Of a DNA stretch of 45,384 nucleotides, positions 1,422 through 28,650 are shown piece after piece. The first letter of the stretch is position 1. Every line of letters starts with the position of its first letter. The position numbers and the translations under genes are program-made. The notes under the pieces were generated by a model. The model was not told the DNA's origin. It saw nothing but the letters and a program-made list of their open reading frames with translations, and did no database searches. The DNA comes from a virus (taxonomy: Duplodnaviria; Heunggongvirae; Uroviricota; Caudoviricetes), in the IMG/VR virus record IMGVR_UViG_2537561934_000012, positions 1-45,384 of that record; one strand, 5' to 3'.

Positions 1422-3905
1422 TTAAAAATCAGCCTGACTCGGGATCAGTTTTTGTATCGTAGCTGTAACGTATTTTGCCTGGTGACGGGCGTCATCCAGC
1501 GCATTGTGGCGCACGCCTTCGAATGGAATAACGGTTCTGGCATCAAAGTCGATTGTTTTTCCCAGCTCAACGATTGTGCGTACATCGCGATCGTTGTAGT
1601 AGCGCCACGGGCAGGGGATGTCCAGGCGTTCGTATGAGGTGCGCAAAATTGCGTTATCGAAAGTTGCACCATTACCCCATACCTGAACTAATTTTTCATC
1701 TGAGTATTCGTTGATGAACTCCCGAAACCGCGAAAGGGCATCCTTCAGTTTTACCTGGTCTGTTAAAATGGCAGCTCTGGCTTCACTGGACTGCTTCAGC
1801 CACCATTCGATGGTTCCACCGTCAGGAACAGCCCCTGTATTCATTGCGTCAGTCAGACTGATAACGATATAAAATACTGGCCCGATTTCCCCTGTTTGTG
1901 GGTCGAAGAAAACCGCACCAATAACCACGATGGGCGCATTGGTGTTGGTTCCCATTGTTTCAAGGTCGATCATCAGGTGGTACCACACTCTGCTGGTGGA
2001 TGTGATAACGTGATGACCGTTCACCGCAATTAAGGGATCTGCCGTCTCGCCAGTTTCATTATCGCTGGCGTGGTCCTGAGCGCTGCCAGCATTCTCCTTT
2101 TGTGGATGTTCAGCGCCTTCCATTTCCTCCGGATCATTTTCCTGAACTTCAACCTGATTCTCTTCATCGAATGTTTCCTGGTATGTTGCGTCGCCCATCA
2201 CCGCACTACAATCAGGGCAGTTGCCGCCACCGATCTGACCGCAGGCTGTGCAGACTTTTTCCGCTTCCTGTTGCGCTACCGGTTCGGATTGTTTCGTTTC
2301 TGGCTCGTTTTGTAACGCATTTTGGCTGTTTTGTTCCGCTTTCTGGTTGTTCTGTTCCGTTTCTTGCTGGTTCTGGTTCACAGAATCGCGGGTTTCAATC
2401 CCCTTCACCCATTTCGGATCATTCGGGTCGCTAATCCCTGCAACAAATTCTCCGCGAGAGGCAGCAAGCAGTTCATTAGCGTCAGGCTGGCTGATATTGG
2501 CTGCCTGCATAATTTTGTTTACTTCGTCAGCGGTAACTTTTACCGGCTCTGGTTGTGCGGTCGTGTCAGATGCACCAGTATTTTGTTGTGAGCCTGAGTA
2601 TGTACCGTTTTTGCGGGCAAAATATTCTTCTTTCGTGATTTCAGTAGCCCCTGCAGCCAGCGCCTTATTCAGACCAGAAAGTTTGTTTGCACGACCATAT
2701 TTTTCGCCATCCTTATCGGTGAAAAGGAAGTAGAACGGCCCCTCACGCTCTACAGATGGTTCAGTTTCCAGCGTGCTTTCATTTTTTTGGGTATCAGATA
2801 CTTCAGTTTCCACTGCATCAGTTTGTGCTGCTGACGGCTGGAGAATATCAGCAGTGTTCTGGTCTGTTTCTTCATCCTCAAACACGCCCTTTGTCGCCAG
2901 GTATTCAGTGATGTATTTGTTCAGTGCTACGGGATCTTTGTGAATGTCGATCGGACGCTCACGGACAAGGCCAAAAATAGTCTGACGGTCGTAGCGAACG
3001 GCATCGGGTTGTTTGCGCATTGATGCGGAAATGCGCTTCCAGTCTTCGCGATCTTTGTCGATAACTTCATTTTTTGCCCAGCGATGGATGCTGCCGTCAA
3101 TGTTTCCGGCATCAATATCACCAGGCCAGAGATAGTAGGCCAGCTCCCTGTCCAGGGTTTTCCATGTCTGCTTGTATTCACGACGAATGGCGGCAGTGAC
3201 AGGAGGGATTTTTTCTGCTGGGTTTTCAGTGTCCTGCCGGTTAACTTTGGCGCGGGCGAGATCAACAACAGAAGTATATGCATCACCTTCTTTGCGCTCC
3301 TTTTCCTGGCGTTTTTTACGGTCGAGAAAATATGCCTGAACGTCGGGCCATTTGGCGGTTGGTTTTAAATCACGTCTGGCATCGTTGATGTATTCAATCT
3401 GACGTTCCGGATACATGGCGTTAATTTCTTTAGTCCGGATAATTGCCTCTGCGAGGTGTCCGTCAAAGGTCATCATGTCGTCATCGCCAAGAAGCCCGCT
3501 TGCGTTGATGACCATATCCACGGTGATGTTTTCATGTGTGCCAAACTTAACGAGGACAGCAGCCTGCTTGTCGTCAGATAACTGATTAAAGTTAACAATT
3601 TCTGTATTCGGCTCAGGTTCGACCGGGACAAAGGAAGCGGATTCCTCATCCCAGAGGTTTTCCTGCATATAATCAGTATCCCAGGAATCAAGGGCAGGGC
3701 GGGCCATGCCGGGTTTATCCTCGCAGACAAGAAATTTATAAGCGCAGTCCTGAGCTGCCGGATATTGTTCCAGGAATTGCCAGGTAAATTTGGCACGGGC
3801 GCGGCGTTCGTCGCCAGCTTCAATGGCAGTGGCAACAGCAACTGCACCTTCTTCCTTTATTGCCTGTTCGTCCGGAATGGCGGCGCAAATAAAGACTTTA
3901 CTCAT
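1422..3905 (-). CDS. RecE-like (exonuclease VIII family) protein with C-terminal DnaQ-like 3'-5' exonuclease domain
   Basis: 827-aa ORF. Central segment LLAASRGEFVAGISDPNDPKWVKGIETRD closely matches the remembered Rac RecE middle region. C-terminal about 190 aa (HLMIDLETMGT...GNGATFDNAIL...HNALDDARHQAKY) reads as a DEDDh-type exonuclease fold. Confidence 0.65.
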   Translation of the reverse strand: MSKVFICAAIPDEQAIKEEGAVAVATAIEAGDERRARAKFTWQFLEQYPAAQDCAYKFLVCEDKPGMARPALDSWDTDYMQENLWDEESASFVPVEPEPNTEIVNFNQLSDDKQAAVLVKFGTHENITVDMVINASGLLGDDDMMTFDGHLAEAIIRTKEINAMYPERQIEYINDARRDLKPTAKWPDVQAYFLDRKKRQEKERKEGDAYTSVVDLARAKVNRQDTENPAEKIPPVTAAIRREYKQTWKTLDRELAYYLWPGDIDAGNIDGSIHRWAKNEVIDKDREDWKRISASMRKQPDAVRYDRQTIFGLVRERPIDIHKDPVALNKYITEYLATKGVFEDEETDQNTADILQPSAAQTDAVETEVSDTQKNESTLETEPSVEREGPFYFLFTDKDGEKYGRANKLSGLNKALAAGATEITKEEYFARKNGTYSGSQQNTGASDTTAQPEPVKVTADEVNKIMQAANISQPDANELLAASRGEFVAGISDPNDPKWVKGIETRDSVNQNQQETEQNNQKAEQNSQNALQNEPETKQSEPVAQQEAEKVCTACGQIGGGNCPDCSAVMGDATYQETFDEENQVEVQENDPEEMEGAEHPQKENAGSAQDHASDNETGETADPLIAVNGHHVITSTSRVWYHLMIDLETMGTNTNAPIVVIGAVFFDPQTGEIGPVFYIVISLTDAMNTGAVPDGGTIEWWLKQSSEARAAILTDQVKLKDALSRFREFINEYSDEKLVQVWGNGATFDNAILRTSYERLDIPCPWRYYNDRDVRTIVELGKTIDFDARTVIPFEGVRHNALDDARHQAKYVTATIQKLIPSQADF

Positions 3906-4939: not shown

Positions 4940-5131
4940 ATGACACAAGAAGAAAAAGTAATGTTTCTTATGCGCCTGGCTGTGGAAACCTTTAACGCCC
5001 ATTGCCAGGTGTCCATTTCACCATCTCACGCCATTTCTCTTGCTACCGAGCAAATGGGGGAGATTGACGTCATTTACGATAAATTTGAAGCATTCCTGGA
5101 TAAGAAGCTTATGGCAGAGAAGCGTCAATAA
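4940..5131 (+). CDS. Hypothetical small protein (63 aa) on opposite strand to the early-left operon
   Basis: ATG at 4940 preceded by AGGAGG at 9-nt spacing (track start 4931 is an in-frame GTG). Convergent with and overlapping the 3' end of the 5109..5714 gene. Confidence 0.45.
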   Translation: MTQEEKVMFLMRLAVETFNAHCQVSISPSHAISLATEQMGEIDVIYDKFEAFLDKKLMAEKRQ

Positions 5132-5714
5132 TCCTCATTACCCATCGTAAATATACAGGAGTGGGCTTGACGTTGTGTTTTTCAAGCTCGCTCTTCATTA
5201 CTTCCTGCAACTTTGAGCTGATAATAAACAAATCAGGTTTATCGTTATTATTTTTATCAGCATCGTCTTTTTTTGTTTTCGACTCTTGTGGTGAATGTTC
5301 GAAAGTAACTTGCAGGGTATTATTTTTAGCGTCCGCAGAGCCTAAAGTATGTGCATATGGATGTGCTATTGTGCGCCCTCGCAGATTTGCATCATTTTCT
5401 AAATTCACTGAACGAAACAGGGCATCAACAAGGCTCTGTACAATGCAAAGGCAATCGAAGACTGTCGCTGTTTCTGTTTTGATTGATGAAAGAACATGGC
5501 CATTCAGGCAAACAGAAATTACCCGTTCATTAACATCGCTTTCCCGCTTTTGATTATCAGAACCATATAGCCCGGTAAACGCATCGCGCACATTACGAAC
5601 CATATTATCGATGGTTTCTTTTTTTGCGGATCCCGGTTTAATTTCCACCAGGCTATCGCTAAGTGTCGTTGCAGCAATTGTCTGGATTTCTTTTGGTAAA
5701 TCTTTAAATTCCAT
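5109..5714 (-). CDS. Hypothetical protein (201 aa), AT-rich accessory gene in early-left region
   Basis: Long ORF in visibly AT-rich DNA. No transmembrane segment or recognisable motif. C-terminal acidic/Lys/Asn-rich stretch. Confidence 0.5.
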   Translation of the reverse strand: MEFKDLPKEIQTIAATTLSDSLVEIKPGSAKKETIDNMVRNVRDAFTGLYGSDNQKRESDVNERVISVCLNGHVLSSIKTETATVFDCLCIVQSLVDALFRSVNLENDANLRGRTIAHPYAHTLGSADAKNNTLQVTFEHSPQESKTKKDDADKNNNDKPDLFIISSKLQEVMKSELEKHNVKPTPVYLRWVMRIIDASLP

Positions 5715-5736
5715 TATTAGCCTCGTTGGTCAGCTA

Positions 5737-5955
5737 TTAACGTGGGTATGTAACCATTCTGGCAATGCTTAATGCCGCTGCTTTTTCCAGCCTGGTGATA
5801 TCCTGCTCCAGAGCGGACAGATTTTCAGCCTGCTTAGCCCTGGCTTCATTGGCCCATTTCAGGTCCTGCGCTGCCATAATTTTCTGGCGCATCCACTCAT
5901 AAAGCTCATCATCGGTATAGTCTGGCGCGATGATGACGGGTTCTCGTTTCTGCAT
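5737..5955 (-). CDS. Hypothetical small protein (72 aa), coiled-coil-like
   Basis: ORF with GAGG Shine-Dalgarno upstream on the minus strand, in the early-left operon. Confidence 0.45.
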   Translation of the reverse strand: MQKREPVIIAPDYTDDELYEWMRQKIMAAQDLKWANEARAKQAENLSALEQDITRLEKAAALSIARMVTYPR

Positions 5956-8004: not shown

Positions 8005-9081
8005 GTGAGTATGGCTAACGCCTGGCTCAGATTATGGCATGACATGCCAAATGACCCTAAGTGGCGAACAATTGCCAGGGTGTCAGGGCAGCCAATTGCA
8101 ACAGTGATGGCAGTGTATATCCACCTCCTGGTGAGCGCGTCACGAAATGTCACGCGAGGTCACATTGATGTCACGACAGAAGATTTGGCAAGTGCGCTCG
8201 ACGTGACAGAAGAGGTAATTGATTCAATTTTGCAGACGATGCAGGGGCGGGTACTTGACGGTGATTTAATCACTGGATGGGAAAAACGCCAGGTGCTGAA
8301 AGAGGACAACGGCAATATTTCGCAAACCGCAAAATCTCCTGCAGAGCGCAAGAGGGCGCAGCGAGAGAGGGAAAGAAAGCGGGAACAAAATGGCAATTGT
8401 CACGGCGCGTCACGAAATGTCACGCACATGTCACGACGAGTCACGACAGATAAAGATACAGATAAAGATACAGATCAAGAAGATCAAAACACTATGGTCC
8501 ATGGCGTAAAAAACGCCACGAACCAGGCAGGGGATGTTCAGACCGTCAATCCTGGTCAGCCAGCAGGCACGACACCGGAAGCCGATTCAGCGTATGCGCT
8601 GAAAGCCGATTCGGGCGCTGTGCAGCAGGTGATGACCGCAAGGCCGGAGCAATCACACCAACTGCAGCAGCCTGAAGCCGATTCCGCCATTCAGCGGGAA
8701 GCCGATCGGGTAGTCCCGGAAAACACCGGGCAGCCTGTGAGACGAGTGGATTATCCGGATGTGTTCGAACAGGTCTGGCGGGAATACCCGCTGCGTGCTG
8801 GGGCAAACCCGAAGAAATCCGCTTTCAGTGCCTGGAAGGCCAGATTACGCGAGGGGGTGTCACCAGAGGCCATGCTGGATGGCGTGAGGCGTTACGCAAG
8901 ATACCTTGCGGCTACCGGGAAAACGGGAACGGAATTTGTTCAGCGAGCGACGACGTTTTTTGGACCGGACCGGAATTTTGAAAACCCCTGGCTGCTCCCG
9001 GTAAGCGGCACGAACAACCAGCGTTGTGTGAATCATATTTCTGAACCGGATACCGAAATTCCACCGGGCTTCAGGGGGTAA
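8005..9081 (+). CDS. Replication initiator (O-like / replisome-organiser-type) with internal origin iterons
   Basis: 358 aa, in the lambda O position. Contains two clusters of four GTCACG repeats at roughly 10-bp spacing inside the ORF. Track start is GTG at 8005; ATG at 8011. Confidence 0.6.
   Translation: MSMANAWLRLWHDMPNDPKWRTIARVSGQPIATVMAVYIHLLVSASRNVTRGHIDVTTEDLASALDVTEEVIDSILQTMQGRVLDGDLITGWEKRQVLKEDNGNISQTAKSPAERKRAQRERERKREQNGNCHGASRNVTHMSRRVTTDKDTDKDTDQEDQNTMVHGVKNATNQAGDVQTVNPGQPAGTTPEADSAYALKADSGAVQQVMTARPEQSHQLQQPEADSAIQREADRVVPENTGQPVRRVDYPDVFEQVWREYPLRAGANPKKSAFSAWKARLREGVSPEAMLDGVRRYARYLAATGKTGTEFVQRATTFFGPDRNFENPWLLPVSGTNNQRCVNHISEPDTEIPPGFRG
8135..8186. repeat. Iteron cluster 1 (4 x GTCACR at about 10-bp phasing)
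   Basis: GTCACG at 8139, 8149, 8170 and GTCACA at 8159. The 21-bp stretch GCGCGTCACGAAATGTCACGC recurs exactly at about 8405. Confidence 0.55.
8405..8490. repeat. Iteron cluster 2 plus adjacent AT-rich GATAAAGATACA tandem repeat (putative origin)
   Basis: GTCACG at 8409, 8419, 8430, 8440, followed by GATAAAGATACA x2 and GATCAAGAAGATCAA. Confidence 0.55.
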
Positions 9082-9906: not shown

Positions 9907-10740
9907 GTGATGTTGATGTGTGATGCGACCGGTCTGTCGCAACGTCGTGCCTGCAGGCTTACAGGTTTATCCCTGTCGACCTGCCGCTATGAGGCTCACC
10001 GTCCGGCTGCTGATGCGCATTTATCAGGGCGCATCACTGAGCTGGCACTGGAGCGCAGGCGTTTTGGCTACCGTCGTATTTGGCAGTTGCTGCGCCGTGA
10101 AGGGCTTCATGTTAATCATAAGCGCGTGTACCGGCTTTATCACCTCAGTGGCCTGGGCGTAAAACGCAGAAGACGTCGTAAAGGGCTGGCAACAGAACGT
10201 CTGCCGCTGCTCCGTCCGGCGGCGCCCAATCTGACCTGGTCGATGGATTTCGTCATGGACGCACTTTCCACCGGTCGCAGGATCAAGTGTCTTACCTGCG
10301 TCGATGATTTCACAAAGGAATGCCTGACGGTCACTGTTGCCTTTGGGATTTCAGGCGTTCAGGTCACGCGTATTCTGGACAGCATTGCACTGTTTCGAGG
10401 CTATCCGGCGACGATAAGAACTGACCAGGGGCCGGAGTTCACTTGCCGTGCACTGGATCAATGGGCCTTTGAGCATGGTGTTGAGTTGCGCTTAATCCAG
10501 CCGGGCAAGCCAACGCAGAACGGATTTATTGAGAGCTTTAACGGACGATTTCGCGATGAATGTTTGAATGAGCACTGGTTCAGCGATATCGTTCATGCCA
10601 GGAAAATTATTAATGACTGGCGGCAGGATTATAACGAATGCCGCCCGCACTCCACGCTGAATTATCAGACACCGTCTGAATTTGCAGCGGGCTGGAGAAA
10701 GGGTCATTCTGAGAATGAAGATTCCGACGTTACTAACTGA
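9907..10740 (+). CDS. IS3-family transposase OrfB (DDE integrase core); expected to be made as an OrfAB -1 frameshift fusion
   Basis: DDE/rve-like core (...TDQGPEFTC...[32 protein letters not shown]...). Reading frame is -1 relative to OrfA. Confidence 0.85.
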
Positions 10741-11629: not shown

Positions 11630-12208
11630 ATGAGAGACATTGATGTAAGAAAGGCTGTGCATGCCAAGATTCTGAGAGATCATCATAAAGATCCTGACAC
11701 CCTAATCATTGATGAGTTTACGATGAATCTAGGGGCTAGCAGAGCTGATATAGCAGTGATCAATGGGCTTATACATGGTTATGAGTTGAAGAGCAAGAGT
11801 GATAACTTGCTCAGATTACCAGCGCAGGTGCAACATTACTCATCAGTGATGGATAAAGTAACTTTGGTTGTCTCTGATTGCCATCTTTATGATGCTTTAA
11901 GCATAGTTCCATCATGGTGGGGGATAAAGCAAGTTACGCAAGGTGCACGGCAAGGTATCCATTTAAAAACAATTCGAACTAGCAAGTTGAATCCACAAGT
12001 GGACAAACTTTCCTTAACAATGCTTCTTTGGAAAGATGAATTGCTTTCCCTATTAAGTGATGTAGGGGAGCTACAGAATTTGAAAAATAAACCTAAACGC
12101 GTCTTATGGTCAAAACTCGCCAATAGTATGGATGTTGGCGAGCTTCGTGAAGCTGTTCGAGTTAAACTTAAAGCCCGTAAAGAGTGGCGAGTTGCTCAAC
12201 AACCTTAG
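11630..12208 (+). CDS. PD-(D/E)xK-type predicted nuclease (192 aa), candidate defence component A
   Basis: Motif arrangement IIDEF ... RADIAVINGLIHGYELKSK (D, then E-x-K about 12 residues later) typical of restriction-endonuclease-fold proteins. AT-rich gene. Recalls the database family label sce7726 (from memory). Confidence 0.55.
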   Translation: MRDIDVRKAVHAKILRDHHKDPDTLIIDEFTMNLGASRADIAVINGLIHGYELKSKSDNLLRLPAQVQHYSSVMDKVTLVVSDCHLYDALSIVPSWWGIKQVTQGARQGIHLKTIRTSKLNPQVDKLSLTMLLWKDELLSLLSDVGELQNLKNKPKRVLWSKLANSMDVGELREAVRVKLKARKEWRVAQQP

Positions 12209-13265
12209 TTATGTGATGGTTTTGCCCAATCCTACGCCATACCTCTGGGCTACCAAATTTATAGTTACCAGAGGGATTGGCTTTGTAGGCTTGATACTCG
12301 TTTGCATAATATTCTATGTCTCTATCTCCCGCACAGAATGTAGGCCCTGAATATTCTCGATGAGCAAGAATATCCTCACTATGTTTACCATATTGTTCAT
12401 AACCAAAGCGATTAGCTACTCTTCCTCGAAATACCCAAAAGTCATTATCTCCAGAGTATCTGACGCTGGCAGATACGCTAGGGAATCGCGTCGAAAGCCT
12501 ATTAAAGTCGGGGTGCTGTACTCCATAATCACTATAAATCACATTTCTGGCAAGTTCTTTTCTATTCATTAAACTCTGCCATAAAATCCACTCGATTCGA
12601 GGTTGAGAATATAGACCAACAGAAATATCACTGAGATCTGTAGGAAATGAACCCCCAGAAAGAATCACTTTTCTGTATTCATTGAGGTGCGCCAGATTGT
12701 TTATCAATCCCATTGCCAAAGTATATAGTTCGCCGGAATTAAGTTTATCCTCGGTTAACTCATCTCTTAAGTCAATAATTATATCAATATTTGATAAAGG
12801 AATTCCCAGATGATTAATGTAATGCGTTATTAATTGTGGGTTAACCAGATCTAACGTGGTTAATCTCAAGCATATTTCATTCTGCATTAATTCATCAATC
12901 GCTCTTTTATAGTTAGATGGGCGAGTTGGTGAACTGACAGGAATAACTCTTATCCCCATATCTCTAACTTGATTAACCGCATTTATTATAGGGTAATGAT
13001 CTTCAGGAGAAATAAAATGCTCTTCAATTAATAATCCATCAATATAAACACCTTGCATATCTGAGCAAGATTTTGAGACTTTCTTTCCGAACTCTATAAG
13101 AGTCTCGTTATAACTCTTTAAGGCAATACCTGAATCAGGGTCAATTGGCACTGGTTCAATTTCGAGTAATGGCAAAATTTTTGATTTCTTTTCAATGGAT
13201 AGCTGCGATAAAGCTGATAACTCAGAACGTTTCGCTTTCAGAATAGGAATATATGAAATTGTCAT
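12168..13265 (-). CDS. Hypothetical protein (365 aa), candidate defence component B, convergent partner of the PD-(D/E)xK gene
   Basis: Long ORF in AT-rich DNA with an AAGG Shine-Dalgarno. Its 3' end overlaps the partner's 3' end by 41 bp on the opposite strand. Recalls the sce7725-type partner family (from memory). Confidence 0.55.
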   Translation of the reverse strand: MTISYIPILKAKRSELSALSQLSIEKKSKILPLLEIEPVPIDPDSGIALKSYNETLIEFGKKVSKSCSDMQGVYIDGLLIEEHFISPEDHYPIINAVNQVRDMGIRVIPVSSPTRPSNYKRAIDELMQNEICLRLTTLDLVNPQLITHYINHLGIPLSNIDIIIDLRDELTEDKLNSGELYTLAMGLINNLAHLNEYRKVILSGGSFPTDLSDISVGLYSQPRIEWILWQSLMNRKELARNVIYSDYGVQHPDFNRLSTRFPSVSASVRYSGDNDFWVFRGRVANRFGYEQYGKHSEDILAHREYSGPTFCAGDRDIEYYANEYQAYKANPSGNYKFGSPEVWRRIGQNHHITKVVEQLATLYGL

Positions 13266-17401: not shown

Positions 17402-17477
<76 letters not shown>

Positions 17478-17480
17478 TAT

Positions 17481-17555
<75 letters not shown>

Positions 17556-21352: not shown

Positions 21353-21901
21353 ATGAAGGTTAACAAAAAGAAGCTCGCGGAAATTTTCAACGTGGATCCA
21401 CGAACGATTGAACGCTGGCAGTCTCAGGGGCTCTCTTGTGTCTCTGGTGGTAGTAAGGGGGTTGAATCTGTATTTGATACCGCCATGGCAATTCAGTGGT
21501 ATGCGCAGCGCGAAGCCGATATTGAAAACGAAAAACTCCGCAAAGAGACCGAGGATTTGCGTGCGGCTGCGGAATCATATTTACAACCCGGCACCATTGA
21601 CTATGAGCGCTACCGACTCACAAAAGCACAGGCTGATGCACAGGAACTGAAAAATGCCCGCGAAGAAGGGCTGGTACTGGAAACGGAATTGTTTACCTTC
21701 ATTCTGCAACGTGTGGCACAGGAGATTTCGGGGATACTTGTACGTGTGCCGCTGACATTACAGCGTAAATATCCGGATATTTCACCGTCACACCTTGATG
21801 TGGTGAAAACTGAAATCGCAAAAGCCTCCAACGTTGCAGCTAAAGCTGGTGAGAGCGTAGGCGGGTGGATTGATGATTTCAGACGCACAGAAGGCAGCTA
21901 A
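21353..21901 (+). CDS. nu1: Terminase small subunit Nu1
   Basis: [27 protein letters not shown]... and ...[23 protein letters not shown]... match remembered lambda Nu1. Confidence 0.85.
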
Positions 21902-23789
21902 TGCAGCCGGTGCGATAGCAACAGGGCTTGTATCTCTCAATATTCCGGTACCACTGACGACAGTTCAGTGGGCTGATCAGTATTATTATCTGCCAAAAGA
22001 GTCTTCATATACTCCCGGGCAATGGGAAACACTGCCGTTTCAGGTTGCCATCATGAACAGCATGGGGAATGACCGGATCCGCACCGTTAATCTGATTAAA
22101 TCGGCGCGTGTTGGTTACACCAAAATGCTGTTGGGGGTGGAGGCTTATTTTATTGAACACAAATCCCGTAACAGCCTGCTTTTTCAGCCGACAGATTCTG
22201 CGGCAGAAGATTTTATGAAATCCCATGTCGAACCAACGATAAGAGACGTTCCTGTATTACTGGAGCTGGCTCCGTGGTTTGGCAGAAAACATCGGGACAA
22301 CACGCTTACCCTGAAACGTTTCTCCTCCGGTGTGGGATTCTGGTGTCTGGGCGGAGCTGCTGCCAAAAACTACCGTGAAAAATCTGTGGATGTGGTCTGC
22401 TATGACGAACTCTCCTCGTTTGAACCGGATGTGGAAAAAGAAGGTTCACCAACCCTGCTTGGCGATAAGCGTATCGAAGGTTCGGTATGGCCTAAATCCA
22501 TACGCGGCTCAACGCCCAAAATTAAAGGTTTTTGCCAGATTGAAAAAGCCGCGAATGAATCTGCGCATTTCATGCGATTTTATGTCCCTTGCCCTCATTG
22601 TGGTGAAGCCCAGTATCTGAAGTTTGGCGATGATGCGACGCCGTTTGGCCTGAAATGGGAGAAGGGTAAACCGGAGACGGTGTATTACCTGTGTGAACAT
22701 AATGGCTGTGTGATCCGGCAGTCGGAACTTGACCAGACCGACGGGCGGTGGATTTGTGACAATACCGGGATGTGGACGCGTGACGGTCTGACATTTTACA
22801 GCGCCGGTGATGAGGAAATCCCGCCACCGCGCTCAATCTCGTACCACATCTGGACGGCATACAGCCCGTTCACCACCTGGGTACAGATTGTTTATGACTG
22901 GCTTGATGCACTGAAGGATCCGAATGGCGTCAAGACGTTCATTAACACCACGCTGGGGGAGCCTTATGAAGAGGCTGTGGCAGAAAAACTGAGCTTTGAG
23001 TTGTTGCTGGAAAAAGTCTGCCACTATGATGCGCAGGTTCCCCTGCGGGTGGTTTACCTGACCGCAGGGATCGACTCTCAGAAAAACCGTTATGAGATTT
23101 ATGTCTGGGGCTGGGCTCCTGGCGAAGAAGCTTTTCTGATTGACAAGCAGATCATCATGGGGAGACCGGAAGATGAGGACACCCTTAAACGCGTTGATGC
23201 CGTGATCCGGAAAAAATACCGTCATGCAGATGGCACTGAAATTTCCATTTCCCGCGTCTGCTGGGATACCGGTGGTATTGACCAGGACATTGTGTATCAG
23301 CGATCCAGAAAACACGGCACTTTTTTTGTGCTCCCCATCAAAGGGGCGTCGGTGTACGGCAAGCCGGTGATCACCATGCCAAAAAAGCGAAACCAGCGTG
23401 GGGTGTTTTTGTGTGAGGTGGGTTCCGATACCGTCAAGGAAATGCTGTATGCGCGTTTTGCCCTGCCGGTGGTATCTCCCAGTGAAGTCGCACCGTATAC
23501 CTTCCGTTTTCCGGATAACCCGGACATTTTTTCTGATGTTGAAGCTAAACAACTCGTGGCAGAAGAGCTGGTTGAAAAAGTTGTGAACGGGCGGGTGAAA
23601 CTCCAGTGGGATGCCAGAAAACGGCGTAATGAAGCTCTGGACTGTCTGGTGTATGCCTATGCAGCGCTGCGCATTTCCGTTCAGCGGTGGCAACTGGATC
23701 TGGATGCACTGGCCCGCGCCAGAAGAGATGAACAGGACGACGATGAAATGACTATTGAAGAAATCGCAGCTGCTCTGAGTGGAGGATAA
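21870..23789 (+). CDS. A: Terminase large subunit A
   Basis: 639 aa. ...[34 protein letters not shown]... matches lambda gpA. Confidence 0.9.
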
Positions 23790-24002
23790 GTGATGATTTA
23801 TACGCATGAAATGCTATGCGATGCCCGCCGGGCGTTACATGAACTGATGATCGGACGTGCTGTGGTTTCCGTCAGCAAGGACGGGCGTCAGGTTCAGTAT
23901 TCGCGGGCGACAATTGGTGAACTGCGTCAGTATATTGAAGAGCTGGAAAGTGCGCTGGGTGTATCCGGACGGCGTCGTGGCCCGGCAGGAGTGGGGCTGT
24001 GA
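23790..24002 (+). CDS. W: Head-tail joining protein W
   Basis: Small ORF between A and B. ...ARRALHELMIGR...QRRRGPAG resembles lambda gpW. Confidence 0.7.
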   Translation: MMIYTHEMLCDARRALHELMIGRAVVSVSKDGRQVQYSRATIGELRQYIEELESALGVSGRRRGPAGVGL

Positions 24003-25570
24003 ACGGGGAACTGGTGGATATTCATGGGCAGCCTTTACGGCAAAGCATGGGATATTCTGGTGGTGGTTCCGGGTTCGGTGGGCAAATGGCAGAATGGCTG
24101 CCTGCACCGGAAAGTGCCGACGTGGCGCTCTTACCTTCCATTCATCTGGGTAACGCCCGCGCGGATGATCTGGTCCGTAACAACGGTATTGCATCGAATG
24201 CAGTGGAAATTCATAAGGATCATATTGTCGGGCACATGTTTCGTCTGAGTTACCGTCCCAACTGGCGCTGGCTGGGGATGTCGGAAGCAGATTCACATGC
24301 TTTTATTGAAGATGTTGAGGCGGCGTGGATGGAATACTGCGATCCGGTGTTTGGTATGATGGATGTGGAAGGGCGTCGTTCGTTTACCGAATTCATTCGT
24401 GAAGGGGTGGGGGTCCATACGTTTAACGGTGAAATTTTTGTCCAGCCCGTATGGGATGCGGAATCCACGTCATTATTCCGGACGAAATTCAAAACCATCA
24501 GCCCGAAGCGTGTCAGTACACCCGGTTATGGTACCAGCGATCGTTTTATGCGTGCCGGGGTGGAAATAAACCGACACGGAAAAGCGCTGGCCTACCATGT
24601 TCAGGATGATGACTGGCCCGGCTACGGTGTCAGTAAATGGACACGAATTACGGCAACACTGCCTTCCGGACGACCGGGAATGATCCATGTGTTTCAGCCA
24701 CAGGAAGACGGGCAGACCCGCGGGGCCAACCAGTTTTATTCTGTAATGGAGCGTCTCAAGATGCTCGACACACTGCAGGCCACGCAACTGCAGTCGGCGG
24801 TGGTTCGCGCCATGTATGCCGCCACGATTGAATCCACACTGGATTCGGAAAAAGCGTTTGAATATATCGCCGGGGTGGGAGATGGAGGTAAAAATCCCCT
24901 GAACACCATCATGAAAGGCTACGCGCGTTATTACGCCACCAATACGGTAAAACTGGGCGGGGTCCGTATTCCGCATCTTTACCCGGGAGATTCACTGAAT
25001 CTGCAGACAGCCCAGAATGCGGATAATGGTTTTTCTGAACTGGAAAAGGCGCTGTTACGTTACATTGCTGCCGGACTGGGTGTGTCGTATGAGCAGCTTT
25101 CCCGTGATTATTCACAGGTCAGTTATTCCAGTGCCAGGGCATCCGCCAATGAGTCGTGGCGGTATTTTATGGGAAAACGAAAATTTGTGGCCAGTCGCCT
25201 GGCGTCACAGATGTTTGCCTGCTGGCTGGAGGAAGCCCTTATTCGTGGTGTGATCCGTCCGCCGAAATCCCGTTTCTCATTCTGGGAGGCCCGTTCCGGG
25301 TGGTGCCGTGCCGAGTGGATTGGTGCCGGTCGCATGGCGATTGATGGCCTTAAGGAAGTGCAGGAAGCGGTGATGCGCATTGAAGGCGGCCTGAGTACAT
25401 ACGAGAAAGAGCTGGCCCTGATGGGGGATGACTATCAGGAGATTTTCCGCCAGCAGCTACGGGAAACTCAGGAGCGACAGGCTGCCGGTCTTCCGCGTCC
25501 GGTCTGGATAAAGGACGCGTTTCAACAGCAGATCCGACAGACAACGGGAGAAAAAGGCGATGCGCTGTAA
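23999..25570 (+). CDS. B: Portal protein B
   Basis: 523 aa. ...GNARADDLVRNNG..., ...DGQTRGANQFYSVMERLKMLDTLQ..., ...GLGVSYEQLSR... match lambda gpB. Confidence 0.9.
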   Translation: MNGELVDIHGQPLRQSMGYSGGGSGFGGQMAEWLPAPESADVALLPSIHLGNARADDLVRNNGIASNAVEIHKDHIVGHMFRLSYRPNWRWLGMSEADSHAFIEDVEAAWMEYCDPVFGMMDVEGRRSFTEFIREGVGVHTFNGEIFVQPVWDAESTSLFRTKFKTISPKRVSTPGYGTSDRFMRAGVEINRHGKALAYHVQDDDWPGYGVSKWTRITATLPSGRPGMIHVFQPQEDGQTRGANQFYSVMERLKMLDTLQATQLQSAVVRAMYAATIESTLDSEKAFEYIAGVGDGGKNPLNTIMKGYARYYATNTVKLGGVRIPHLYPGDSLNLQTAQNADNGFSELEKALLRYIAAGLGVSYEQLSRDYSQVSYSSARASANESWRYFMGKRKFVASRLASQMFACWLEEALIRGVIRPPKSRFSFWEARSGWCRAEWIGAGRMAIDGLKEVQEAVMRIEGGLSTYEKELALMGDDYQEIFRQQLRETQERQAAGLPRPVWIKDAFQQQIRQTTGEKGDAL

Positions 25571-27176
25571 TTTATCACATATTGCCGCGATGGCATTTAA
25601 TGAGCCGCTTTTACTGGAACCCGCCTATGCGCGGGTTTTCTTTTGCGCACTGGGTAAGGAGATGGGGGCGGGCAGCCTTGCCGTTCCGCAGCAGGCCGTT
25701 CAGCTTGATGCCGATGGTATGCAGCTGGAGGTTACCGATTATATGACTGGTGGTCCGCGTCCGGTAAAGAGTTACCAGGTGAAAAATGGTATTGCCATTC
25801 TGCCGGTGAGCGGCACGCTGGTACATAAAATGGGTACCCTGCAGCCATATTCCGGTATGACCAGTTATGACGGTCTGACTGCCCGTCTTAAGTCAGCGGT
25901 GAACGACCCGGATGTACGCGGCATTTTACTGGATATCGACAGTCCGGGCGGTCAGGCTGCCGGGGCGTTTGACTGTGCTGACATGATTTACCGTCTGCGG
26001 GAACAGAAGCCCGTGTGGGCGCTGTGTAATGACATGGCCTGTTCAGCCGCCATGTTGCTGGCGGCGGCCTGTACGCGTCGGCTGGTCACGCAGACGGCAA
26101 AAATTGGTTCGATTGGTGTGATGATGGCGCACACCAGTTACGAGAAACAACTGGCACAGGAAGGCGTGGATATCACGCTGATTTACTCCGGGCAGCACAA
26201 GGTTGACGGCAACAGTATTCAGGCGTTGCCGACAGGTGTGCGTGCGGATTTTCAGCGCCGTATTGATGATGCCCGCCGGATGTTTGTCGACAAGGTGGCA
26301 CTTTATACGGGGCTGAGTTCAGAGGTGGTGATGAATACCGAGGCTGCCGTTTATGACGGTCAGGCAGGCATTGATACAGGCCTGGCTGATCAACTGATTA
26401 ATGCTGCAGATGCCGTTGATGTAATGGTTTCTGCTCTGAACGACTCTGTTACACAGGAGAATACGATGACACCAAAAAATCTCACCGTTGCTGAAGCGGT
26501 GTCCCAGGAAAATCAGCGCGTGATGGGGATCCTGAATTGTCAGGAGGCGAAAGGACGCGAAAAACTGGCGCAGATGCTGGCAGGTCAGCAGGGAATGTCA
26601 GTTGAGCAGGCAAAAACATTACTGGCAGCGGCACCGGCAACCGGCACGGCAAGTTCCGGCGATCAAATTATTGCGTTGCCGGAAGCAAAAGGACGTGAAC
26701 AACTGGCACGGACGCTGGCTGAACAGCCGGGAATGACGGTGGAGCAGGCGAAAACGTTACTGGCAGCGGCACCGGCAACCGGCACGGCAAGTTCCGGCGA
26801 TCAAATTATTGCGTTGCCGGAAGCAAAAGGACGTGAACAACTGGCACGGACGCTGGCTGAACAGCCGGGAATGACGGTGGAGCAGGCGAAAACGTTACTG
26901 GCAGCGGCACCGGCAACCGGCACGGCAAGTTCCGGCGATCAAATTATTGCGTTGCCGGAAGCAAAAGGACGCGAAAAACTGGCACAGGCGCTGGCTGAAC
27001 AACCGGGAATGACAGTGGAGCAGGCGAAAACGCTGCTGGCAGCTGCGCCATCAGTATCGCAACCGTCACAGGTAACACTTTTTGAGCGCTTCATGGCACA
27101 GCATGCCGCCAGTGCCGTTTCCGGTGGCGGAACTGCCGGGAACGGGGAAAAAGAACTGCTGATGAGTATGCCGTAA
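25560..27176 (+). CDS. C: Head protease / scaffold C (S49-type) with expanded C-terminal Nu3-like scaffold repeats
   Basis: 538 aa. N-terminal S49 ClpP-like region matches lambda gpC. C-terminal region carries four tandem 46-aa repeats. Confidence 0.85.
   Translation: MRCNLSHIAAMAFNEPLLLEPAYARVFFCALGKEMGAGSLAVPQQAVQLDADGMQLEVTDYMTGGPRPVKSYQVKNGIAILPVSGTLVHKMGTLQPYSGMTSYDGLTARLKSAVNDPDVRGILLDIDSPGGQAAGAFDCADMIYRLREQKPVWALCNDMACSAAMLLAAACTRRLVTQTAKIGSIGVMMAHTSYEKQLAQEGVDITLIYSGQHKVDGNSIQALPTGVRADFQRRIDDARRMFVDKVALYTGLSSEVVMNTEAAVYDGQAGIDTGLADQLINAADAVDVMVSALNDSVTQENTMTPKNLTVAEAVSQENQRVMGILNCQEAKGREKLAQMLAGQQGMSVEQAKTLLAAAPATGTASSGDQIIALPEAKGREQLARTLAEQPGMTVEQAKTLLAAAPATGTASSGDQIIALPEAKGREQLARTLAEQPGMTVEQAKTLLAAAPATGTASSGDQIIALPEAKGREKLAQALAEQPGMTVEQAKTLLAAAPSVSQPSQVTLFERFMAQHAASAVSGGGTAGNGEKELLMSMP
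26544..27060 (+). repeat. In-frame tandem repeat, 138-bp unit, about 4 copies (two central copies identical)
   Basis: Unit starts at about 26544, 26681, 26819 and 26957. Encodes EAKGRE(Q/K)LA..LAEQPGMTVEQAKTLLAAAPATGTASSGDQIIALP. Confidence 0.85.
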
Positions 27177-27186
27177 GCGTGGATCC

Positions 27187-27552
27187 GTGATTCAGATAAA
27201 TCAGGAGACTGAGAAAATGATTAAAACCACCACAGAAAAGCGCGCGGACGGGCGCATTTTTGCCGGAAGCGATCCGGTATATACCGCAACAGGTACCAGT
27301 GGTATCAGTGTTGCCACGCCTTCACTGACGCCACTGATGCTGGATGACGCCAGCGGAAAACTGGTGGCATGGGATGGTCAGAAAGCCGGAACGGCTGTGG
27401 GGGTGCTGGTACTGGCGCTGGCCGGGACCGAGCCCACACTGACGTACTACAAAAGTGGTACGTTTGCCACCGAATCGCTGGTCTGGCCGGATTCGGTGGA
27501 TGCGGTGAAAAAAGCCAACGCGTTTGTGGGAAGTGCCATCAGCCACGCCTGA
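27187..27552 (+). CDS. D: Head decoration protein D
   Basis: ...TPLMLDDASGKLVAWDG...YKSGTF... matches lambda gpD. Confidence 0.8.
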   Translation: MIQINQETEKMIKTTTEKRADGRIFAGSDPVYTATGTSGISVATPSLTPLMLDDASGKLVAWDGQKAGTAVGVLVLALAGTEPTLTYYKSGTFATESLVWPDSVDAVKKANAFVGSAISHA

Positions 27553-27621
27553 TGGTGAAATGATTAACTGAAAAAACGGGTCGTGATGCGGCCCGTTTGT
27601 GTTTTTAAAGGAAAGTCAATT

Positions 27622-28650
27622 ATGGGGTTATTTACCACGCGTCAGTTGCTCGGCTACACCGAGCAGAAAGTGAAATTCCGTGCGCTGTTTCTGGAGCTGT
27701 TTTTTCGTCGTACGGTCACTTTCCATACTCAGGAAGTGATGCTGGATAAAATCACTGGAAAAACACCGGTTGCGGCATATGTGTCTCCGGTTGTGTCAGG
27801 TAAGGTACTGCGCAGTCGTGGTGGTGAAACCCGCGTGTTACGCCCCGGCTATGTTAAACCAAAACACCGGCTGGATTATCAGCAGGCGGTGGAGCGTCTT
27901 CCGGGGGAAGATCCGGCCCGTCTTAATGACCCGGCCTACCGTCGCCTGCGTATTCTGACTGACAACCTGAAACAGGAAGAGCAGGCGATTGTGCAGGTGG
28001 AAGAAATGCAGGCGGTCAGCGCTGTTCTGCAGGGTAAGTACACCATGAGCGGTGAACAGTTTGAGACGGTGGAAGTGGATTTTGGACGTTCTGCCGCCAA
28101 TAACATAACGCAGGCAGATGGACGCGAATGGTCAAAACAGAATGTTGACACCTTTGATCCGACGCATGATCTGGATGCGTACTGCGATTTTGCTTCCGGT
28201 ACCATCAATATTGCGATTATGGACGGTACTGTCTGGCGTATGCTGAACGGTTTTAAGCTGTTTCGTGAAAAACTGGATACCCGCCGTGGCTCAAAATCTG
28301 AACTGGAAACCGCGCTGAAAGATCTGGGTTCCGTGGTTTCTTTTAAAGGTTATTACGGTGATCTGGCCATCATGGTGGCGAAAACAACGTATGTTGATGA
28401 AAGCGGGGATGAGCAGCGCTATCTGCCGGAAGGCACACTGATTCTTGGAAACACTCAGGTGGATGGTGTCCGTTGTTATGGCGCAATCCAGGATAACCAG
28501 GCGTTGAGTGAAGGGATCACCTCTGCAATTCGTTATCCGAAACACTGGTTAGAGGTGGGGGACCCGGGGTGCGAATATACCATGACGCAATCTGCGCCGT
28601 TGATGGTGTTGCCGGATCCGGACGCGTTTGTGGTAGTTAAGGTGAAATAA
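27622..28650 (+). CDS. E: Major capsid protein E
   Basis: ...TTRQLLGYTEQKVKF...LFLELFF...PKHRLDY...QVEEMQAVSAVLQGKYTM...SAPLMVLPDPD... match lambda gpE. Confidence 0.9.
   Translation: MGLFTTRQLLGYTEQKVKFRALFLELFFRRTVTFHTQEVMLDKITGKTPVAAYVSPVVSGKVLRSRGGETRVLRPGYVKPKHRLDYQQAVERLPGEDPARLNDPAYRRLRILTDNLKQEEQAIVQVEEMQAVSAVLQGKYTMSGEQFETVEVDFGRSAANNITQADGREWSKQNVDTFDPTHDLDAYCDFASGTINIAIMDGTVWRMLNGFKLFREKLDTRRGSKSELETALKDLGSVVSFKGYYGDLAIMVAKTTYVDESGDEQRYLPEGTLILGNTQVDGVRCYGAIQDNQALSEGITSAIRYPKHWLEVGDPGCEYTMTQSAPLMVLPDPDAFVVVKVK

Follow-up and report, generated by a model that had tools for sequence, protein, structure and literature searches.

A lineage-typical four-module scaffold repeat in a phage 21-type head protease gene, with probable recent homogenisation of its central units

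The 45,384-nucleotide stretch analysed here (IMG/VR record IMGVR_UViG_2537561934_000012, a virus of the Caudoviricetes), which as a whole is called the window in the following, holds a tandem array of 138-bp units within a gpC-like head protease gene. It belongs to the phage 21-type scaffold repeats as an ordinary representative with four modules, and four copies are the normal number for the lineage of the window. By far the best explanation, and one we hold with considerable confidence, is an old, selectively maintained four-module scaffold array which has recently undergone recombination between its own units. As judged from sequence comparison, the only recent feature is the homogenisation of the array centre, not the copy number. 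The initial annotation of this DNA had recognised an in-frame repeat of about four copies, which was borne out, and had regarded it as a recent amplification or possibly an artefact of assembly, two readings that fared poorly once related genomes were compared.

The gene carrying the array is an open reading frame of 538 aa on the plus strand (25560-27176), assigned as a head maturation protease/scaffold fusion by Pfam, PHROG, homology and gene position. Its N-terminal S49 (SppA-like) serine protease domain is present: residues 146-290 correspond to Pfam Peptidase_S49 (PF01343, E=7.7e-33), PDB SppA chains match at E=3e-16, and the protein matches phrog_53 'head maturation protease' at E=1e-217. 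The length difference noticed earlier, 538 aa compared with about 439 aa in lambda, was confirmed from the ORF and from lambda gpC (439 aa). The gene is flanked by the portal gene (23999-25570) on one side and by a D-like gene (27187-27552) and an E-like major capsid gene (27583-28650) on the other, as identified by Pfam; TerL is located at 21870-23789, and the gene order terminase - W - portal - C - D - E is found in the window as well as in relatives. The early region of the prophage also holds an ORF for an IS3-family transposase. Identity of the protease part amounts to 72% with phage 21 gp5 and 61% with lambda gpC, that of the capsid protein to 84% with phage 21 and 58% with lambda gpE, while the scaffold part shares 43% with the C-terminal part of phage 21 gp5/gp6 and 47% with the Gifsy-1 homologue. 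On these sequence identities the head module is classified as phage 21 type, not lambda type.

Nested in the same frame is a Nu3/gp6-like scaffold reading frame of 236 aa (26466-27176, plus strand), recognised by phrog_8399 and homology. A putative Shine-Dalgarno sequence, AGGAG (26455-26459), was read 6 nt 5' of an internal in-frame ATG at 26466, both elements together occupying 26455-26468 on the plus strand. The methionine of this internal start does not vary among 14 homologues, and in alignments it falls on the start annotated for phage 21 gene 6, with analogues in lambda Nu3 and N15 gene 6; the scaffold is probably also made separately from this ATG. Four stretches of the scaffold frame match phrog_8399 'head scaffolding protein' (E=1e-52), and all four repeat units match one and the same part of that profile. 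The repeat array is located 3' of ATG 26466, and its placement in the Nu3-like scaffold part of the gene, already proposed in the initial annotation, is sound.

Tandem Repeats Finder reported a single array at 26543-27043 with a period of 138, 3.6 copies, 93% matches, 0 indels and a score of 834, the sole long-period array anywhere in the 45-kb window, and a unit-by-unit comparison agreed with it. The units begin at 26544, 26682, 26820 and 26958, in the frame of ORF 25560-27176 (+). Units 2 and 3 are identical over 138/138 nt, as had been noticed before for the two central copies, and unit 1 shares 122/138 nt with both, all 16 mismatches falling within its first 75 nt. Homology of unit 4 to the others is confined to its first ~93 nt, which encode a 31-aa core; since unit 4 is devoid of a linker, the array consists of four cores (31-aa consensus EAKGRExLAxxLAxQxGMxVEQAKTLLAAAP) and three linker segments of 15 aa each (ATGTASSGDQIIALP). 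Within the array, an exactly periodic, homogenised tract of 353 nt extends from 26619 to 26971 on the plus strand, in which a 215-nt block occurs twice at an offset of 138. On the opposite (minus) strand the array region is free of ORFs of 60 aa or more, and Rfam gave no match between 25000 and 28000.

When the conserved residues 5' of the core are included, the repeat is delimited as a module of ~40 aa with the consensus xDxI(M/L)AL-EAKGRExLAxxLAxxPGMTVEQAKxLLAAAP, and the modules are separated by ~7-aa linkers of Ala, Gly, Ser and Thr. In the window protein a module HMM recovered four modules at 74-77 bits each, all on the plus strand: module 1 (aa 321-359, VMGILNCQEAKGREKLAQMLAGQQGMSVEQAKTLLAAAP; 26520-26636; 74.0 bits), for which AlphaFold2 (AF2) predicts helices with pLDDT ~82-85; module 2 (aa 367-405; 26658-26774; 76.6 bits); module 3 (aa 413-451; 26796-26912; 76.6 bits), identical to module 2; and module 4 (aa 459-497; 26934-27050; 76.8 bits). 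They are followed by a single-copy C-terminal tail (SVSQPSQVTLFERFMAQHAASAVSGGG...ELLMSMP; 27051-27173, plus strand), which is conserved in the phage 21, Gifsy-1 and lambda homologues and in which F508, M512 and P538 are invariant in an alignment of 56 sequences. The same HMM counted one module in lambda gpC (439 aa), as the initial annotation had stated, and one in N15 gp5 (447 aa), three in phage 21 gp5 (501 aa), in the phage 4A7 homologue (501 aa) and in the Gifsy-1 homologue (498 aa), and five in P0004 and P0002 (568 and 578 aa).

No other part of the scaffold is conserved as widely as the module, which turned up in 869 clusters (50% identity) of a library of 1.84 billion representative proteins; most of the best-scoring matches listed have a single copy, and distant S49-scaffold fusions are among them. 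Neither Pfam nor NCBIfam, both of which were searched, holds a family for it; matches of T2SSK, HTH_15, Bac_DNA_binding and EncD to the repeat region stayed below threshold and were treated as noise from Ala-rich helices. Among solved structures, the full-length search matched the SppA protease domain and nothing over the module, and the module profile gave nothing but chance matches, such as the 24-residue chain 9hqv_Un of the Toxoplasma mitoribosome, in which AKGREALAEK occurs. The full-length AF2 model predicts three short helices per module (pLDDT 70-85) joined by linkers below 50. Modelled alone, the scaffold part reached a mean pLDDT of 44, which is poor for fold searching; this low score fits a largely disordered scaffold, and the module fold is a predicted one. 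In the literature on repeats in Nu3 and other scaffolds, no paper addressing the function of the module was found.

Among the closest known systems is phage 21 gp5/gp6, which shares with the window the place of the gene between those for portal and decoration/capsid, the S49 protease with a nested scaffold frame, for which the internal start in the window is a putative one, and the tandem ~40-aa module in the scaffold part. The phage 21 record M81255 (also OL657228) annotates three repeat_region features in gene 6, 'Tri1 box', 'Tri box' and 'Tri3 box', with the note 'function unknown; putative'. These boxes (aa ~324-358, 371-407 and 418-455) coincide with the matches of the module HMM (318-356, 368-406 and 415-452). 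However, phage 21 possesses three strongly diverged copies and the window four, of which the central two are identical; the window protein has the tandem Tri-box pattern EAxGRE...GMTVExA...LAAAP, but not in exactly three copies, and in relatives the number varies from 3 to 5. The gpC homologue of Gifsy-1, an inducible and functional phage of Salmonella, and the ~500-aa Salmonella/Escherichia family likewise display three tandem modules at the same spacing, all of them diverged, whereas the window has four. All three of these phages, 21, 4A7 and Gifsy-1, are plaque-forming with three diverged copies each.

Lambda gpC/gpNu3 and N15 gp5/gp6 share with the window the homologous protease and a scaffold frame nested in the protease gene, whose in-frame internal start is putative in the window. 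In lambda gpC the same module is present once (aa 361-399, IMGILNCEEAHGREEQARVLAETPGMTVKTARRILAAAP), together with a related C-terminal tail, and is preceded by a segment of ~50 aa rich in Thr, Ser, Ala and Asp that the window protein does not have. The lambda Nu3 protein is described at ~131 aa. Its annotation in J02459 gives 201 aa, in comparison with 236 aa for the scaffold of the window.

Copy number in relatives shows that the array of the window is the usual one. Full-length matches to the 1617-nt gene are present in 105 complete E. coli genomes, and the array region was covered to at least 80% in 99. Within a spread sample of 60 rows, the array spanned 989-1001 nt, equivalent to four units, in 55, and 862 nt, equivalent to three units, in one. 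At 85-95% identity, 538-aa proteins bearing four EAxGR motifs are found in E. coli, E. marmotae, E. albertii, Citrobacter and Salmonella, and their conservation suggests that the four-copy form is fit for assembly. Among isolated phages in INPHARED no four-copy record was found by megablast with the C gene or by tblastn with the scaffold part. The initial annotation had let its reading depend on what related phages carry, and their arrays essentially count against it, with three copies in phages 21, 4A7 and Gifsy-1 and four in most relatives.

The copies themselves are old. In three relatives with gene identities of 97% (L001), 91% (L003) and 89% (L004) the units differ among themselves; any two of units 1-3 agree at 101-123/138 nt, and unit 4, being without a linker, agrees with them at fewer. 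Paralogous cores of L003 and L004 are close to synonymous saturation (dS 0.63-1.76) at a dN/dS of 0.02-0.15, so that the duplication must be ancient and each copy under purifying selection. Signatures specific to linkers 1, 2 and 3 are kept by position across genomes, which means positional orthology of units. Even in the window, unit pairs other than 2/3 have dS values of 0.42-1.06.

In order to retrace what happened in the centre of the array, L001 was taken as reference, being the closest non-homogenised relative among complete genomes with a 97% identical gene. Core 1 of the window corresponds to core 1 of L001 with 2 nt difference, core 2 to core 2 with 0 nt, and core 4 to core 4 with 1 nt. 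Core 3 of the window, in contrast, is 0 nt apart from core 2 of L001 and 8 nt from its core 3; as it matches core 2 rather than core 3, it appears to have been converted. The linkers tell a similar story, as all three in the window are nearest to linker 3 of L001, at 2 nt, as opposed to 16 nt for linker 1 and 9 nt for linker 2. With c for the unit core and l for the linker, the layout is thus [c1-l3][c2-l3][c2-l3][c4] in the window versus [c1-l1][c2-l2][c3-l3][c4] in L001. Differences between the two genes are concentrated in the array (38 of 47), with 7.5% divergence there and 0.8% outside. At the 11% divergence observed between units 2 and 3 of L001, 138 identical positions would arise by chance with a probability of ~0.89^138, roughly 1e-7. 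The mosaic pattern, as read from these comparisons, is what gene conversion and/or unequal exchange among the units leaves behind.

Comparable events can be seen elsewhere in the gene family. Independently homogenised units are present in P0032, P0039, P0040, P0042 and P0027; in P0003, both unit 2 and unit 3 carry core 2, yet the linkers are distinct; P0001 (492 aa, 196 member sequences) has three units, one of them a core2-linker3 hybrid; L002 carries a 492-aa three-unit allele in which the linker is a hybrid of linker 3 and linker 2; and the five-unit alleles measure 568 and 578 aa. Copy variants of 3, 4 and 5, mosaic units and repeated independent homogenisation are features shared with concerted evolution by conversion or unequal crossover in general, and homogenisation appears from the allele sequences to recur in this family in the same manner. 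Since most alleles retain diverged, position-specific units, it is occasional rather than continuous. In the window, the homogenisation would be functionally near-neutral.

A more complicated route to the same array would begin with an unequal crossover yielding a three-unit allele with a core2-linker3 hybrid, which was then re-duplicated, with linker 1 converted later. The identical central units would in that case be a genuinely recent one-unit tandem duplication restoring the number of four. Speaking for this, a common three-unit allele with the hybrid of core 2 and linker 3 does exist (P0001; a three-unit allele also in L002), and alleles of 3, 4 and 5 copies are all known. However, at least three events are needed, and the replacement of core 3 by core 2 next to distinct linkers, as in P0003, fits patchy conversion at constant copy number. 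The end product of both histories is the same, and we consider re-duplication an unlikely origin of the present allele.

Under the preferred reading of an ancient array with recent internal recombination, a helical scaffold module of ~40 aa would have been duplicated long ago to four copies joined by short, flexible linkers rich in Ala, Gly, Ser and Thr. Later, recombination between the 138-bp units would have placed core 2 over core 3 and linker 3 over linkers 1 and 2, and this overwriting would have produced the perfectly periodic tract of 353 nt. Either conversion alone or a 4-to-3-to-4 course of deletion and re-duplication followed by conversion is possible as the detailed history. The modules may act as protein-protein interaction units, by self-association and/or by binding to the major capsid protein or the portal, and could target protease and scaffold into the growing procapsid; tandem copies on flexible linkers would then offer a higher valency per chain than the single-module Nu3 of lambda. 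Lambda Nu3 has been reported to have E (capsid protein), C (protease), B (portal) and itself as partners (PMC3224144). We infer that the module has a role in procapsid assembly, and by analogy with other scaffolds the conserved single-copy tail (27051-27173) may be the capsid-binding end.

The one-copy phages lambda and N15 and the three-copy phages 21, 4A7 and Gifsy-1 are all viable, and thus copy number is evidently tolerated. One could go further and regard the range from 1 to 5 copies as an evolvable dial of scaffold valency, reset by recombination of 138-bp units, with the homogenised allele as a mark of recent selection instead of neutral conversion; we regard this as rather improbable. 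If it were true, copy number would adjust the nucleation of procapsids and the loading of protease, or alternatively it would alter the recognition of scaffold and protease by host defences that sense head-assembly proteins.

It is very improbable that the identity of the central units or the copy number is unreal, as the product of mis-threading or collapse of variant units in short-read assembly. Such an error is conceivable in itself, as the periodic tract of 353 nt exceeds typical short reads and k-mers and makes copy number hard to resolve, and an 81-aa protein composed of repeat units only (P0143) indicates that arrays of this kind can become isolated short contigs. Partial proteins of the 90% cluster, which has ~470 members, were considered as possible contig breaks in the array and dropped, as their truncation is N-terminal. 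However, the copy number equals that of ~100 closed genomes, and the distinctive linkers 1 and 2 of the relatives would have survived mis-threading. Furthermore, the exact 538-aa protein occurs on at least 16-18 contigs, and array DNA identical to that of the window was recovered in 8 of 9 retrieved loci, from several NCBI assemblies and one ENA metagenome; the ninth (L013) separates units 2 and 3 by one substitution in unit 3. Across a 7.6-kb region, 6 of the 8 loci with the identical array differ from the window by 4-18 SNPs, the positional SNP counts of L007 and L009 being too high owing to an offset close to where the locus begins. As the same array DNA is found in at least eight independent assemblies on flanks differing in SNPs, an artefact is unlikely; the homogenised allele is inherited and has spread among strains.

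Equally implausible is a recent in-frame amplification of a single lambda-like segment to ~4 copies, with a longer scaffold and possibly an altered assembly as its consequence. In its favour, units 2 and 3 are indeed identical, unit 1 agrees fully with both over its 3' half, and lambda has one copy. However, the four-copy gene is the norm of the lineage, in ~100 complete E. coli genomes and in other genera; units in relatives are near synonymous saturation (dS 0.6-1.7); cores 1 and 4 of the window are themselves diverged from units 2/3 (dS 0.42-0.56), and identity is confined to units 2 and 3; and the head genes belong to the type of phage 21, which already has three diverged copies.

With regard to the old four-module array and its recent internal recombination, the locus itself is of little importance; four modules are usual in this lineage, and few residues are altered by the homogenisation. 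The broader point is a widely conserved scaffold module without a family name, and the natural alleles with 1, 3, 4 and 5 copies constitute a ready-made series for studies on scaffold valency in lambda-type procapsid assembly. Where identical units are met within a conserved array, gene conversion should be considered before amplification or misassembly.

Rearrangement of the C gene, which encodes the fused S49 head protease and scaffold, was found not to be limited to the 138-bp unit. In P0044, an E. coli homologue of 657 aa, a block of approximately 156 aa spanning the end of the protease part together with the scaffold modules is repeated, and both this protein and P0092/P0093 (551 aa), all homologues of the phage-21-type, i.e., from head genes resembling those of phage 21, display internal duplications of larger size. 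Recombination in the C gene region therefore exceeds single units. The C allele of the window, with its homogenised array, was also present in the prophage at locus L013 (GCA_038737065.1). This prophage copy is degraded: in the region 5063-5820 of that locus, the capsid gene has been reduced by a deletion to a 70-aa remnant, which adjoins a Z-like tail gene.

Tandem repeats of other kinds were detected elsewhere in the window. The O-like replication initiation gene (ORF 8005-9081, plus strand) contains short repeats with periods of 10 (five copies) and 12 (2.9 copies) at 8398-8480, which are probably origin iterons and the counterpart of those likewise present in lambda ori, and a 21-nt repeat in about four copies lies at 2289-2375 within the RecE-like exonuclease gene (phrog_2082; ORF 1422-3905, minus strand). 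On the 3' side of the O-like gene, the early/replication region holds an IS3-family transposase ORF (9907-10740, plus strand; Pfam rve, rve_3 and HTH_21), for which a simple scan revealed no terminal inverted repeats; given this ORF, the prophage may no longer be fully functional. A gene for a 365-aa 'Beta protein' (12168-13265, minus strand; PF14350, E=2.4e-52) is located in the early/late junction region with its neighbours on the other strand, and may represent a moron or accessory gene. The adjoining genes for tRNA-Thr(tgt) (17402-17477) and tRNA-Gly(tcc) (17481-17555), both on the plus strand, are flanked by an anti-repressor-like gene and the lysis genes.

As regards the scaffold module itself, the distant S49-scaffold fusions P0200 and P0241 (534-547 aa) possess one copy close to the C-terminus, and on its N-terminal side lie long low-complexity repeats of acidic character (EDEDDAESN...), a layout suggesting that across distant phage groups the module is conserved and the spacer variable.
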